The notes beneath the pieces are model-generated. The model was given only the letters and a program-made list of their open reading frames with translations, was not told where the DNA came from and did not search any database. From positions 533 through 31,283 of the forward strand of contig CAYRYX010000001.1 in the NCBI GenBank assembly GCA_964428755.1: a stretch of DNA of 30,751 nucleotides, read 5' to 3'. This document shows positions 2,726 through 8,254 of this stretch, one piece after another. The translations under genes and the position numbers were made by a program. Positions within the stretch are counted from its first letter, which is position 1. Each line of letters begins with the position of its first letter. The DNA comes from an uncultured Bdellovibrionales bacterium. Its GTDB lineage: Bacteria; Patescibacteriota; Minisyncoccia; Moranbacterales; UBA1568.

Positions 2726-4213
2726 ATGAAACAATCCAGCAATGAAGTAAGGGTCCGGTTCGCACCTTCGCCGACGGGGTATCTGCACGTCGGGGGGCTG
2801 CGCACCGCGCTCTATAACTACCTCTTCGCGAAAAAGCACGGCGGTACGTTCATCCTGCGCATCGAGGATACGGATCGGACGCGGCTCGTTCCCAATGCGA
2901 TGGAGAGTCTGATCGATGTTCTCCAAAAAATGGGGCTTGCTCATGACGAAGGTCCGTATATCCAGTCGGAGCGGCTCGAGGTGTATCGGAAACATGCCGA
3001 GGAACTCTTGGCAGCCGGCAAGGCGTATCGCTGCTTCTGTTCCGCCGAACGATTGGAGGAGATGCGCGCCGGACAGACCGCGGCAAAGACGATGCCGAAG
3101 TACGATCGGCAGTGCCTCGCACTTTCTCCGGAGGAAGTGTCGGTCAAGCTTGCAGCGGGAGAGTCGCATGTGATTCGGATGAAGGTTCCGGATGATCGCG
3201 AAGTCGCATTTGATGATCTTGTCCGCGGAAAGGTTTCTTTCAAGACCGGGACGATCGACGATCAGGTGCTGCTCAAGTCCGACGGTTTTCCGACGTATCA
3301 TCTCGCGAATGTCGTGGATGATCATCTCATGGATATTACCCACGTGATCCGCGCCGAAGAATGGCTTCCGTCCACTCCGAAGCACATCCTCCTCTATGAG
3401 GCGTTCGGATGGGAGGCTCCGACCTATGCACACCTTCCGCTTCTTCTTAATCCTGATCGGTCGAAACTTTCGAAACGACAAGGCGATGTCGCCGTCGAGG
3501 ATTATCTTGCGAAAGGATATCTTCCGGAAGCGCTCATCAACTTCGTCGCGCTTCTCGGCTGGAATCCGGGGGAGGGGAATACGCAGGAACTGTTTTCACT
3601 TTCGGAACTTGTCGATCGATTCGATTTGTCCGCTGTCCACAAGGCGGGAGCGGTCTTCGATCTTGGGAAGCTCGACTGGATGAACGGGGAGTATATCAAG
3701 CGGCTTTCGGCGGATGAGCTCTTTGCAAGAACACTCCCGTTTCTTTCGGAAAAAGAGTTTTTTAAGGAATGGAGAACGGCGAATGGAGAATGGAGCGATA
3801 CGGATGCCGACTTATTTGTGAAGAGGGTGCTCTCGGTCGAACAGGATCGCCTTGTGAAACTCGCGGACGTCGGCGACGGGAGCCCGTTCTTCTTCGCAGG
3901 GCCGGCGGTTGAAAAGGCGACGCTTCCCTGGAAGAAGAGCACGGAAGATGGCGCGAGGGAGGCGCTCGGACGTGCGCTTGGTGTCATCGAGGCTGTTTCC
4001 GATGAGGATTGGACCCGTGAGAAGCTCAGCGAAATCCTGCTCGAAGCCGCAGGTGACGACCGCGGCGGGTTCCTTTGGCCGCTTCGGGTCGCGCTAACGG
4101 GCGCAGAAAAATCCCCGCCGCCCTCGGATATCGCCTGGGTTATCGGCAAAGAACAGACTCTTTCCCGCGTTCACGCCGCTCTTAATATACTTAGCGGTGA
4201 AACCGCTAAGTAA
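2726..4213 (+). CDS. gltX: glutamate--tRNA ligase
   Basis: RFAPSPTGYLHVGG (HIGH), FILRIEDTD, KLSKR (KMSKS), Zn site CFC...YDRQC. Confidence 0.98.
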   Translation: MKQSSNEVRVRFAPSPTGYLHVGGLRTALYNYLFAKKHGGTFILRIEDTDRTRLVPNAMESLIDVLQKMGLAHDEGPYIQSERLEVYRKHAEELLAAGKAYRCFCSAERLEEMRAGQTAAKTMPKYDRQCLALSPEEVSVKLAAGESHVIRMKVPDDREVAFDDLVRGKVSFKTGTIDDQVLLKSDGFPTYHLANVVDDHLMDITHVIRAEEWLPSTPKHILLYEAFGWEAPTYAHLPLLLNPDRSKLSKRQGDVAVEDYLAKGYLPEALINFVALLGWNPGEGNTQELFSLSELVDRFDLSAVHKAGAVFDLGKLDWMNGEYIKRLSADELFARTLPFLSEKEFFKEWRTANGEWSDTDADLFVKRVLSVEQDRLVKLADVGDGSPFFFAGPAVEKATLPWKKSTEDGAREALGRALGVIEAVSDEDWTREKLSEILLEAAGDDRGGFLWPLRVALTGAEKSPPPSDIAWVIGKEQTLSRVHAALNILSGETAK

Positions 4214-5573: not shown

Positions 5574-6992
5574 ATGAATGATAAGAAGAATCAGATAGGC
5601 GTGGTTGGTCTGGCGGCGATGGGATCCAATCTCGCGATGAACCTCGCGGATCACGGGTTTCGCACGGCGGTCTATAACCGTTCTCCCGAACGGACGGGGG
5701 CGCTTCTTTCGGAATATGGGAGCGGCAAGGGTCTTGATCCGACGTATACGCCGGAATCGTTCGTCTTGTCCATCGAGACTCCTCGGAAAATCATCCTCAT
5801 GGTGAAGGCGGGTGATGCGACGGATGCGGTCATCGCGCAGTTCGCACAGCTTCTCGAGCCGGGTGACATTCTTATTGACGGTGGAAACTCGTTCTTCCGG
5901 GACACGATACGTCGTGCAGAGTCGCTCCGGGAGAAGGGGATCCGGTTCGTCGGGATAGGGATTTCCGGCGGCGAGGAAGGCGCACGTCGCGGTCCGTCCA
6001 TGATGCCCGGTGCGACCGGTGATCTGTGGACCGAACTTCGACCGATGCTCGAGGCGATCACGGCCTCGGACTTCGACGGGAATCCGTGCGTGGCTCCGAT
6101 CGGAGAGGGTGGAGCGGGTCATTTCGTGAAGATGGTGCACAACGGTATCGAGTATGCCGATATGCAGCTCATCGCCGAAGCTTATTTTCTCATGAAGAGC
6201 GGCCTCGGGCTTTCGAACGATGAGATTGCCGATGCATTCGAAAAGTGGAACAGCGGTCGGTTGGAGTCTTATCTCATCGAGATTACCGCGAGTATCCTCC
6301 GTGTGAAGGAACAGGATGGCGGTCGCATCATCGACCGGATTCTCGACACGGCCGGATCAAAGGGTACGGGAAAGTGGACGACCGACCAGGCGCTCGAACT
6401 GGGGGCTCCTTCGTTTTCCATCGCAGCGGCGGTATTCGCCCGTTCCGCATCGGCCGATAAGGCGATGCGCGTCCGGCTCTCGGATATTTTTGAGGAATCG
6501 GAAACATCGTCTGCCAGAAATCTCACGCTCGACGATGTCGAAAATGCGCTCTATGCCGCGAAACTCCTCTCGTACGCGCAGGGGTACGAACTCCTGTCGC
6601 TTGCGGCGAAGGAATACGGCTGGAATCTTGATTTCCGAGAAATCTCGCGTATCTGGCAGGGCGGATGCATCATCCGGGCGCGGTTCCTCCGGGAGCTGAC
6701 GCTCGTGTATACGGAAAACCCTGACCTCTCGCACCTGCTCCTCTCCTCGTTCGCGCAAGGTGCGATCAAGGAAAATATCGGCGCACTCCGGAAAGTTTCC
6801 GGGGCGGCGGTAGCGACGGGAATTCCTATTCCTGGATTTCTCTCGGGTCTATCGTACTTTGATACCATGCGTACGGCACAAGGATCGGCGAATCTTATCC
6901 AGGCGCAGCGCGACTATTTTGGTGCGCATACGTTCCAGCGTGAGCTTGGCGGAGAGCCGGAGCACTTCGATTGGAATTTTGAAAGTCTATGA
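5574..6992 (+). CDS. gndA: NADP-dependent 6-phosphogluconate dehydrogenase, decarboxylating
   Basis: GLAAMG, YNRS, IDGGNS, VKMVHNGIEY, KGTGKWT, IWQGGCIIRA, LIQAQRDYFGAHTF. Confidence 0.98.
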   Translation: MNDKKNQIGVVGLAAMGSNLAMNLADHGFRTAVYNRSPERTGALLSEYGSGKGLDPTYTPESFVLSIETPRKIILMVKAGDATDAVIAQFAQLLEPGDILIDGGNSFFRDTIRRAESLREKGIRFVGIGISGGEEGARRGPSMMPGATGDLWTELRPMLEAITASDFDGNPCVAPIGEGGAGHFVKMVHNGIEYADMQLIAEAYFLMKSGLGLSNDEIADAFEKWNSGRLESYLIEITASILRVKEQDGGRIIDRILDTAGSKGTGKWTTDQALELGAPSFSIAAAVFARSASADKAMRVRLSDIFEESETSSARNLTLDDVENALYAAKLLSYAQGYELLSLAAKEYGWNLDFREISRIWQGGCIIRARFLRELTLVYTENPDLSHLLLSSFAQGAIKENIGALRKVSGAAVATGIPIPGFLSGLSYFDTMRTAQGSANLIQAQRDYFGAHTFQRELGGEPEHFDWNFESL

Positions 6993-7378
6993 TAAAAGAT
7001 TTTGATACATGGAATGATCAAAAAAAGTCGCTCGATGTGAGGGCGGAGAGATTCTTCTTCAAGTCCGGGGAAGTGTGGTGGTGCGCGCTTGGAACGAATG
7101 TCGGCCACGAATCATGCGGAAAAGGAGAGACGTTCCGTCGCCCGGTCCTTATCTTGAAGAAACTTTCTCGTGAGAGCTGTATCGTGATTCCGCTGACTTC
7201 GAAAGAAAAATCCGGATCATGGTTCGCGGATATCACCCTTCATGGAGAGAAAAGGGTTGCGCTTCTTTCACAGCTACGCATGGTTAGCTCAAACCGTTTT
7301 CAGCGGAGACTTGCCGTGCTTGATGAAGGGGATTTTTCTTCGGTAAAGCGAAAGCTCGAGGAACTCCTCGAGCTTTGA
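6989..7378 (+). CDS. PemK/MazF family endoribonuclease toxin, no adjacent protein antitoxin
   Basis: GEVWWCALGTNVGHE...RRPVLIL...VIPLTS PemK pattern; ATGA overlap with the gnd stop. Confidence 0.85.
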   Translation: MIKDFDTWNDQKKSLDVRAERFFFKSGEVWWCALGTNVGHESCGKGETFRRPVLILKKLSRESCIVIPLTSKEKSGSWFADITLHGEKRVALLSQLRMVSSNRFQRRLAVLDEGDFSSVKRKLEELLEL

Positions 7379-7425
7379 AATCATCACCCCGCTTTCGCGG
7401 GGATCGGTGGGTAACCCCAAAAGTA
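7345..7425 (-). ncRNA. candidate antisense small RNA overlapping the toxin 3' end
   Basis: Lies downstream of a perfect - strand promoter; ccccgc-GAAA-gcgggg GNRA hairpin on - strand (7387-7402); 12-bp stem at 7351-7376 followed by U-rich nucleotides; ends estimated. Confidence 0.4.
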
Positions 7426-7430
7426 CTTCT

Positions 7431-7458
7431 ATTATAAATCATTTCATTGATTTGTCAA
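7431..7458 (-). promoter_or_regulatory. perfect-consensus sigma70 promoter, antisense to the toxin gene
   Basis: - strand reads TTGACA (7458-7453), 16 bp, TATAAT (7436-7431). Confidence 0.75.
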
Positions 7459-7462
7459 GCTG

Positions 7463-8254
7463 ATGCTTGTAAACATATCCGTATCATCCGAGGAAGCGAA
7501 ACGGGCTACGGCGGAAAGTATTTCGAGTAGCCTACTCGAACTCAAGAAAGAGGGAACTCCCGTTCTCTTTCTTTTTTCCGGTGGATCCGCACTGTCCGTT
7601 CTTGATATGATCGATCCCTCCTGTCTCGGAGGAAATCTGATAATGGCACCCGTCGATGAGCGGTTCGACCCGACCGGCGAGGCGAGCAACTTCGCCGCGT
7701 TCATGAGCACCGATTTTTTCCGGAAAGCGGAATCGGCTGGTGTGCGCTTCATCGACACTCGCGTGAAAGAAGGGCAGGGGAGAGGCGACCTTGCAAACGA
7801 ATTCGAAACCGCGATCCGAAAATGGATGGCGGATTTCGTTACTCCGACCGAATCTTCCTACCTTGTCATTCCGAGCGTAGTCGAGGAATCTCGTCCGTGC
7901 CCCATGGGCAAAGTCATCGCCATCCTCGGCATGGGTCCGGACGGGCACACTGCGGGAATATTTCCCGATGCCGATGAAAAGGCGTTCCATGATCGTTTCG
8001 AGGGCAATCGTCTTGTCGTCGGGTACCGCGCACCGGAATATGCTACCTGTCCGGAGCGCGTCACCGTGACGCTTTCATTCCTCGAAAAGAACGTCGACCA
8101 GGCGTTCGTCTTCGTTTCAGGGGAAGAGAAGCATACTGCCTGGGAGCGCGTCCTTCGCAATGACGAGCCGATCCATCTTCTTCCCGCTGGGATATTCCAG
8201 AGACTCTCGAAAGTGCAAATATTCACGGATTTGGATCGAAAAATCACGATATGA
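7463..8254 (+). CDS. pgl: 6-phosphogluconolactonase with an in-frame palindromic insertion
   Basis: LFSGGS, PVDERF, LGMGPDGHTAGIFP, RVTVT, VSGEEK; downstream of gnd. Confidence 0.88.
   Translation: MLVNISVSSEEAKRATAESISSSLLELKKEGTPVLFLFSGGSALSVLDMIDPSCLGGNLIMAPVDERFDPTGEASNFAAFMSTDFFRKAESAGVRFIDTRVKEGQGRGDLANEFETAIRKWMADFVTPTESSYLVIPSVVEESRPCPMGKVIAILGMGPDGHTAGIFPDADEKAFHDRFEGNRLVVGYRAPEYATCPERVTVTLSFLEKNVDQAFVFVSGEEKHTAWERVLRNDEPIHLLPAGIFQRLSKVQIFTDLDRKITI
7865..7891 (+). repeat. REP/RPE-like element half inside the pgl CDS
   Basis: gtcattccgagcgtagtcgaggaatct (VIPSVVEES) matches the intergenic GTCATT..GAG..GAAG(C/A)ATC family at 8808, 8843, 12384, 12476, 13685. Confidence 0.8.

Follow-up and report, generated by a model that had tools for sequence, protein, structure and literature searches.

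What is a consensus promoter doing directly behind a toxin gene, pointing back into it? The question is raised by a 30,751-nt stretch of contig CAYRYX010000001.1 (the window), assembled from a member of the Patescibacteria, in which a gene for a PemK/MazF-like protein is faced by a perfect promoter on the opposite strand. The genes around the site are packed on the + strand: 6-phosphogluconate dehydrogenase (gnd, 5574-6992), the PemK/MazF-like gene (6989-7378) and a 6-phosphogluconolactonase-like gene (pgl, 7463-8254). The toxin ATG overlaps the gnd stop codon (ATGA) and the toxin TGA lies at 7376-7378. The element under study lies in the 84-nt gap that separates the toxin and pgl-like genes and also takes in the last part of the toxin gene. 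Comparison with relatives establishes a gene for a structured small RNA (sRNA) at this site, fixes its strand and structure, and shows that it is strictly linked to this family of toxins. Judged from these sequence comparisons, the sRNA gene of ~80 nt and the PemK/MazF endoribonuclease gene that it faces probably form a toxin-antitoxin (TA) cassette, in which the RNA would act as the antitoxin.

The RNA gene and its conservation

A sequence-only reading of the window had reported an exact TTGACA-16-TATAAT promoter on the - strand (7458-7431), with no - strand gene for it to serve. Both statements hold. The -35 hexamer TTGACA (7453-7458) and the -10 hexamer TATAAT (7431-7436), separated by a 16-nt spacer, match the consensus at 12/12 positions, and no credible - strand open reading frame (ORF) is seen. 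Two frames of 52 and 43 aa were rejected, as they begin upstream of the predicted RNA start or cross stems that evolve compensatorily; the small - strand ORFs of the window, considered as a hidden antitoxin, are without conservation. The promoter is unique within the 30.7-kb window and none of 100 dinucleotide shuffles yields one. Its bases recur in relatives (n=48), at counts of T47 T44 G44 A37 C36 (A23/T22) for the -35 and T45 A45 T41 A34 (A29/C15) T47 for the -10, the latter being placed a constant 4 nt from the start of the covariance model in 38/48 loci. At the fixed offset the promoter score has a mean of 9.8/12 in the 48 loci and is at least 9 in 39 of them, compared with a mean of 6.3, and 2.1% at or above 9, for 1,920 random sites. 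Most of the low scores come from loci with two-module RNAs, where the promoter is sited further upstream. A chance promoter is ruled out by the shuffles and by this fixed-offset conservation. The spacer of the window promoter also holds a perfect inverted repeat, AAATCA-n6-TGATTT (7436-7453). It was considered as an operator and rejected, since spacers are not conserved among relatives (alignment A3); chance is its probable origin.

The predicted sRNA spans ~80 nt on the - strand (7345-7424), where covariance model R1 matches 7366-7426 with 70 bits (E 8e-18). It is predicted to start at the A of a conserved ‘UAC’, 7 nt downstream of the -10, and to end in the U-tract that follows the third hairpin. 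Hairpin 1 (UGGG-GUUA-CCCA, 7408-7419), a U-GGG/CCC-A stem with a GUUA loop, is found by both folding and alignment and was overlooked in the sequence-only reading. It is followed by the linker CCGAU (7403-7407), in which the G and A are invariant and the U nearly so (alignment A4). Hairpin 2, CCCCGC-GAAA-GCGGGG (7387-7402), is present as that reading had described it and is supported by covariation and G·U pairs. A second linker, UGAUGAUUUC (7377-7386), contains a U-G-A that is invariant or nearly so in alignment A4. The GAU on the 5′ side and the UGA on the 3′ side could extend hairpin 2 by a U·U and tandem G·A pairs. Hairpin 3 (7351-7376), the terminator stem, has the sequence AAAGCUCGAGG-AGUU-CCUCGAGCUUU. 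It had been taken for a 12-bp stem over the last toxin codons and the stop; the location stands, with 11 bp and a 4-nt AGUU loop. It covers the last eight codons (K-L-E-E-L-L-E-L) and the first base of the TGA. The tail beyond it, CGCUUUACC (7342-7350), is a degraded U-tract in this copy. Folding of a 95-nt - strand RNA gives an energy of -37.5 kcal/mol (z = -3.97), and 0/200 shuffles are as stable.

For the comparison, 80 loci were fetched from species-representative genomes, and at least 490 relatives were confirmed among the matches listed. The fetched loci all belong to metagenome-assembled genomes of Patescibacteria, also termed the candidate phyla radiation (CPR), except for a few contigs binned elsewhere. 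The same block directly follows the stop codon in 77/79 assessable PemK/MazF homologues. By inspection, only L044 and L076 are without a clear copy; L034 and L041 are cut by contig ends. In the orientation opposite to that of the toxin gene, the block opens with TTGAC(A/T), 16-17 nt, TATA(A/C)T and ~6 nt. It continues with (U)AC-UUUUGGG-loop-CCCAC(C/U)GAU, a variable stem-loop and UGAU(G/A)AU, and closes with a hairpin and U-run within the last codons of the toxin. These loci share a layout in which a - strand promoter, set at a constant distance, is followed by a 4-bp hairpin, then by a hairpin of 6-7 bp that covaries and has a UNCG or GNRA loop, and lastly by an intrinsic terminator. More distant homologues keep this layout and differ in the core, which is ACAAAUGGCC-loop-GGCC followed by a GC-rich hairpin. 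The sequence-only reading had proposed to test the 150 bp downstream of stand-alone PemK homologues for a conserved antisense promoter and covarying stems, and the relatives contain both.

In a MAFFT alignment of 33 sequences, 99.4% of the cells in the two 5′ hairpins are paired, against 32-57% in slid controls. Hairpin 2 has compensatory changes in 6/7 pairs with 99.6% of its cells paired; one of these pairs occurs as CG:13, AU:10, GC:7, GU:2 and UA:1. None of 500 shuffles of this alignment matches the observed pairing and compensation. When 50 sequences are aligned to the fitted model, 7/7 pairs of hairpin 2 covary, and RNAalifold independently recovers the same pairs. In hairpin 1 the three G-C pairs are invariant and the U-A pair is kept in 31/33 sequences. 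Hairpin 2 is flanked by unpaired GAU…UGA, and these bases, like the CCCAC motif, do not vary among proteins that are only 45-69% identical.

The - strand is identified as the RNA strand by the promoter and terminator, by the types of loop and by the G·U pairs. On this strand 17 pairs are G·U and would be A·C on the + strand, with 0 of the reverse kind. Hairpin 2 has a UNCG or GNRA loop in 23/50 sequences when read on the - strand, compared with 3/50 on the + strand. The earlier argument that the GNRA loop of the window favours the - strand thus generalises to the family.

Anchored on the covariance-model matches, a terminator scan finds a hairpin and U-run at the same distance in 45/48 loci, compared with 13% of control windows. 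The window is one of the three loci that fail on the U-run. The U-rich bases described there by the sequence-only reading form a weak tract (UUU-CGC-UUU), and it is in the 45/48 relatives that a clean U-run follows the stem. The tract of the window is degraded because the toxin has K-R-K instead of K-E-K at this point. That reading had also cautioned that the stem might simply arise from the use of CTC GAG codons in KLEELLEL; the codons are themselves under selection. Leucine is encoded by CTC in 42/77 cases (55%) within the last 10 codons and in 29/221 (13%) over the rest of the gene (p = 3e-12), and glutamate by GAG in 35/49 cases compared with 52/150 elsewhere (p = 1e-5). In three loci (L003, L016 and L021), a GAG->AAG change (Glu to Lys) in one arm of the stem is offset by a silent CTC->CTT change in the other. 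The bias and the compensatory changes show that codon choice serves the stem. The sRNA terminator, both stem and U-tract, appears by these patterns to be dual-coded in the last ~12 codons of the toxin.

Homologues of the toxin in databases bear odd C-terminal tails, such as …LELSSNHQSRSLGSVGNPKSN. The gap in the window, translated in the toxin frame through two stops, gives LEL*NHHPAFAGIGG*PQK. As a similar tail is obtained here across two stops, the conservation lies in the nucleic acid and not in protein. The tails (…LELSSNHQSRS.GSVGNPKS…) were therefore rejected as a protein feature; they result from read-through into the sRNA gene's complement, where the window has two in-frame stops. Spurious tails of the form …SNHHQSRS.GSVGNPKS… are present in P0002, P0004, P0006, P0007, P0047, P0060 and others, a systematic artefact of gene callers, and a recurrent annotation error is thereby corrected.

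Some RNAs of the family are doubled. L043 (400-520) contains two hairpin-1/hairpin-2 modules of 45 nt, 91% identical and at 64-nt spacing, with one promoter and one terminator. Two tandem modules, diverged in sequence, are likewise found under one promoter and one terminator in L017/L019 (3380-3500). Tandem Repeats Finder reported no arrays in the loci and none in the window; the two-copy array of L043 was seen by repeat search instead. Two-module arrays are limited to L043 and L017/L019, and the RNA of the window is a single module.

Linkage of the RNA to a MazF-fold toxin

The covariance model gives 50 matches in 81 sources, and 50/50 are antisense to a PemK-like gene and abut its 3′ end. 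Among these 50, the second matches in L068 and L080 lie behind second PemK paralogues. Each of these genomes has two full toxin and sRNA cassettes within ~1.5 kb (L068:1801-2328 and 3001-3448; L080:990-1511 and 3001-3401).

The linkage is also seen when the RNA is sought first. A 21-nt core pattern was searched in metagenome contigs and its matches were filtered by the covariance model, which left 29 true matches among 80 pattern loci; the 51 chance matches, a majority in line with the information content of the pattern, served as a control. A convergent PemK gene accompanies the RNA in 21 of the 29 loci (frameshift-split in two of them). Of the others, 2 are at contig ends, 3 have toxin stubs only and 3 are without a toxin. 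A PemK ORF is present in 0/51 of the chance matches. In L128 (9400-9670) the toxin beside the sRNA has an internal deletion, by which residues 1-28 run directly into the last ~12 codons, and in L173 and L157 the toxin is reduced to the C-terminal codons that encode the RNA terminator. Intact toxins almost never occur without the RNA and the RNA outlives the toxin, which is the asymmetry expected of an antidote.

No MazE/PemI gene adjoins the toxin in the window, its neighbours being gnd upstream and pgl downstream. ORFs of at least 40 aa within 2 kb were clustered across the 81 loci and no conserved protein neighbour was found, the largest family being present in 6; a hidden protein antitoxin was rejected on this basis. 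Around the cassette, gene content and orientation change from one locus to the next. With no conserved neighbour and varying flanks, the conserved unit is exactly the toxin and the RNA, a self-contained cassette of ~500 bp.

The toxin itself is a soluble protein of 129 aa. A Pfam scan gives PF02452 as the sole match (residues 25-127, E 1.2e-14), with none of ToxN/AbiQ, CptN or TenpN. Profile matches are to PDB 4mdx (B. subtilis MazF/EndoA) and 1ne8 (E 2e-7), and R51 and T70 align with the Arg and Thr of MazF, which we take to be catalytic, as in 4MDX. The AlphaFold model has a predicted local distance difference test (pLDDT) score of 86.5. Its top 50 Foldseek matches in the PDB are all MazF, at template modelling (TM) scores of 0.61-0.72, with no ToxN among them. 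By this modelling the toxin is assigned as a true protein of the MazF fold, a CcdB-like SH3 barrel. Its branch-specific N-terminal helix, FDxWNxxKK (residues 5-16), is outside the Pfam domain. PADLOC returned no match and has no model for this toxin.

A conserved -35/-10 promoter for the toxin was not found across the loci (best score 8.3, background 8.0). Separately, a -10 box, often TGnTATAAT, is situated 5-9 nt (mostly 6) before the ATG in 24/68 PemK homologues (L001-L080), the window copy not among them; the same placement occurs at 4.3% of random ATGs. Shine-Dalgarno sequences are not evident at toxin starts with this upstream box. The position of the box 6 nt before the ATG in about one third of the copies suggests that many of these toxin mRNAs may be leaderless.

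Relatives in Campylobacter

Proteins 30-42% identical to the toxin are encoded on IMG/VR contigs, in Campylobacter prophage CJIE4 and on plasmids of Campylobacter, Helicobacter and Nitratiruptor. The plasmids include pVir of C. jejuni 81-176, where the gene is at 30634-31038. The pVir protein is 34% identical to the window toxin over 102 aa (BLASTP, E 2e-19) and has the FDxWNxxKK motif in common with it. All the relatives outside the Patescibacteria have a strong - strand -10 box and hairpins directly after the stop. In pVir the - strand promoter after the toxin stop is TTGATT-17-(TG)TATAAT.

A study by Dugar et al. (2013, PMC3656092, Table S12) reported a pVir sRNA, CJpv3, of 77 nt on the - strand (31119-31043), detected by Northern blot. 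Set against the pVir sequence, in which the toxin stop is at 31038, the RNA begins 7 nt downstream of the -10, and the sequence of its probe agrees as well. A GC-rich hairpin and then GAUAAU abut the toxin stop codon. The mapped CJpv3 ends 5 nt before the coding sequence, so the overlap with the toxin gene is not conserved in the Campylobacter branch. According to two papers that cite Shen et al. (2016, Mol Microbiol 101:909), CjrA is an antisense RNA antitoxin of this plasmid and forms the type I pair cjrA/cjpT. CjrA is probably CJpv3, and CjpT the pVir PemK-like gene. A search of PLSDB fits this assignment, as the pVir cassette matches only 81-176-type pVir plasmids at near-identity. The general arrangement thus likely has one experimental precedent, in Campylobacter.

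The sequence-only reading knew of no description of such an arrangement. This requires amendment, as the pVir homologue has the convergent, Northern-detected CJpv3 in the same place. The RNA itself is absent from Rfam. With Rfam 15 at the gathering threshold, tRNA alone is found in the whole window; in E-value mode the best match to 7300-7480 is 15.5 bits, against a threshold of 90 bits. Weak matches to C/D-box snoRNA were rejected, being far below threshold and due to the string UGAUGA alone. The Campylobacter-type loci also have no match in Rfam 15, and a literature search found no paper describing the RNA in Patescibacteria.

The pVir cassette resembles that of the window in its homologous toxin, in having no annotated adjacent protein antitoxin and in a promoter which follows the stop and faces the gene. 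The RNAs differ, in that the pVir RNA is not detectably related in sequence or structure to those of Patescibacteria, and ends before the coding sequence rather than terminating inside it. With filters off, model R1 has no match at the expected place in L096, L097 or L081-L094, the best match being elsewhere at E 0.2. The pVir-type pair is located on a pathogen plasmid or prophage, whereas the Patescibacteria pair is chromosomal.

Two further observations concern the Campylobacter elements. Plasmid pCJ419 (L218, NC_004997.1; 1150-1300) and four other Campylobacter plasmids of 3.8-5.2 kb contain a 93%-identical CJpv3-like sRNA gene with its promoter and without the toxin; such a lone RNA could be an anti-addiction element against pVir. 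In phage CJIE4-3 (L096, 2486-3080), a gene annotated ‘toxin MazF’ stands alone between the terminase large subunit and portal genes, and the 160-nt gap after it holds a convergent promoter and hairpins.

Function of the RNA and its setting

We infer that the RNA neutralises the toxin, which supports the sequence-only reading of an ~80-nt RNA encoded in cis as either an antisense (type I-like) or a protein-binding (type III-like) antitoxin. In the mechanism proposed, the near-consensus sigma-70 promoter would fire towards the toxin gene. The transcript would fold into a short hairpin at its 5′ end and then into a GC-rich one that is capped by a tetraloop and bordered by the invariant GAU/UGA, and would end at the intrinsic terminator written in the last ~12 codons of the toxin. 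The window toxin would ride on the gnd transcript; as it is so placed and a conserved toxin promoter is lacking, the RNA should be in excess and the nuclease kept silent. The RNA may then bind the MazF dimer directly, as a pseudo-substrate or decoy, in the manner of a type III system. Such direct binding is given close to an even chance. The lean towards it stems from the invariant unpaired linkers, the compensated hairpin, the tandem modules and the loss of overlap with the coding sequence in Campylobacter. An antisense RNA acting in cis needs no conservation of sequence, so the invariant linkers point to another kind of recognition. The geometry also makes it unavoidable that the RNA pairs with the toxin mRNA at its 3′ end, and such pairing may be a second layer of control. 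No + strand terminator was found between the toxin stop and the sRNA gene, and a gnd-toxin-pgl transcript would for this reason be complementary to the whole RNA.

Such a system would share features with each of the main TA types. As in the type III systems (ToxIN, CptIN and TenpIN), the toxin is an endoribonuclease, the RNA is its sole partner, and the RNA is structured, modular and occasionally repeated in tandem (L043, L017/L019). In type III systems, however, the RNA is a repeat array that precedes the toxin within one operon, with a terminator between, and the toxins are ToxN/AbiQ, CptN or TenpN; the RNA here is a single module, downstream and convergent, with its own promoter, and the toxin is a Pfam PemK protein. 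With the type II systems MazEF, PemIK and Kid-Kis it shares the toxin fold and probably the chemistry, as the catalytic Arg and Thr align. It differs from them in having no MazE/PemI gene at this locus and an additional N-terminal helix in the toxin. In type I systems an RNA with its own promoter is complementary to the toxin mRNA, and this is also predicted here in silico. A more specific and tentative proposal is of an unclassified TA design in which the MazF nuclease is curbed by direct binding of a single-module, convergent sRNA with a dual-coded terminator. The design would be the standard control of MazF across Patescibacteria, with distant cousins on Campylobacterota plasmids and prophages, and the FDxWNxxKK helix would be an RNA-binding adaptation replacing MazE.

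The strongest competing explanation, though in itself rather unlikely, is a purely antisense action of type I character. The sRNA would pair with the 3′ end or 3′ untranslated region (UTR) of the toxin mRNA and cause decay by RNase III or a block, with no contact to the protein. Complementarity is indeed built in, as the RNA overlaps the last ~10 codons of the toxin, and without a + strand terminator the overlap could extend to the full ~80 nt; the pVir RNA antitoxin, as the citing papers have it, is also an antisense antitoxin of type I. Convergent antitoxin RNAs that overlap the 3′ end of the toxin gene are known in Bacillus. These B. subtilis pairs, txpA/RatA and bsrG/SR4, are alike in the strong promoter of the RNA's own, the convergent 3′ overlap and the facing terminator hairpins. 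They differ in that their toxins are membrane peptides of <60 aa, compared with a MazF-fold nuclease here, and their RNAs are ~180-220 nt with no deep sequence core, where the present core is conserved at phylum-level distances. Complementarity survives any mutation, so the invariant GAU/UGA, the CCCAC and the covarying hairpin need another explanation. Tandem module arrays would add nothing to pairing, and the 77-nt RNA of C. jejuni halts 5 nt short of the coding sequence. The toxin, a soluble nuclease of 129 aa, is also unlike the small hydrophobic membrane peptide usual for type I; SymE and RalR are exceptions to this rule.

It is improbable that the sRNA is real and has a role other than antitoxin, such as a transcription insulator or roadblock, a substrate or cofactor of the nuclease in a housekeeping ribonucleoprotein, or a hitch-hiking regulator in trans. 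In favour of such a role, the cassette is found within operons, here gnd-pgl, where a head-on promoter would affect downstream expression, and the family is very widespread in the small genomes of Patescibacteria, which is unusual for selfish TA modules. Against such a role, the RNA is kept beside deleted and truncated toxins, orphan copies of the Campylobacter RNA persist on small plasmids without a toxin, and the flanking genes and orientation vary freely. The last possibility, and a very improbable one, is that the block works on the + strand, either within the 3′ UTR of the toxin mRNA or at the DNA level as a recombination site or mobile-element end, and that the promoter match is incidental. 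In its favour, the cassette is mobile, since it turns up in many genomic contexts that include a plasmid and a prophage, and the hairpins of the window block fold on both strands. It is opposed by the G·U and loop asymmetries, by the promoter and terminator conserved in the - orientation and, for the C. jejuni homologue, by a Northern-detected transcript whose strand and start are those predicted (PMC3656092).

Several points weigh against the RNA as a protein-binding antitoxin. Hairpin 1 is without covariation support, since its G-C pairs are invariant, and the terminator U-tract is weak in the window copy. Homology of the RNAs between the Patescibacteria and Campylobacter branches is unproven, as the model misses the Campylobacter RNAs. 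The sole published relative appears, from the papers that cite it, as an antisense antitoxin of type I and not as a binder of protein. The linkers could also be conserved for contact with a different partner, for example an RNase or a chaperone.

MazF and PemK are textbook type II toxins, a class defined by its protein antidote, and the branch described here is a large one without a protein partner. At least 490 loci of this RNA-linked branch were counted in the species-representative genomes scanned, almost all in Patescibacteria and with essentially one RNA per toxin. The RNA is a new, well-supported and phylogenetically deep family, in a phylum with very few known non-coding RNAs, and its terminator, written in the codons of a protein, is a clear case of dual coding. 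Inhibition of a MazF-fold enzyme by RNA, if true, would blur the boundaries between types I, II and III and possibly form a bridge between them; the compact cassette makes such inhibition directly testable.

Two minor observations concern the pgl-like gene. Its ATG (7463) is only 4 nt past the -35 hexamer of the sRNA, with no Shine-Dalgarno visible; the gene is therefore either transcribed head-on through the sRNA promoter or starts elsewhere. The motif GTCATTCYGAGYG occurs four times in the window (7865-7877, 8843-8855, 12384-12396 and 13685-13697), compared with 0.22 expected. One copy is within the pgl-like ORF, where it is read as …LVIPSVVEES…, and in-frame insertion of a small dispersed repeat is a possible origin.

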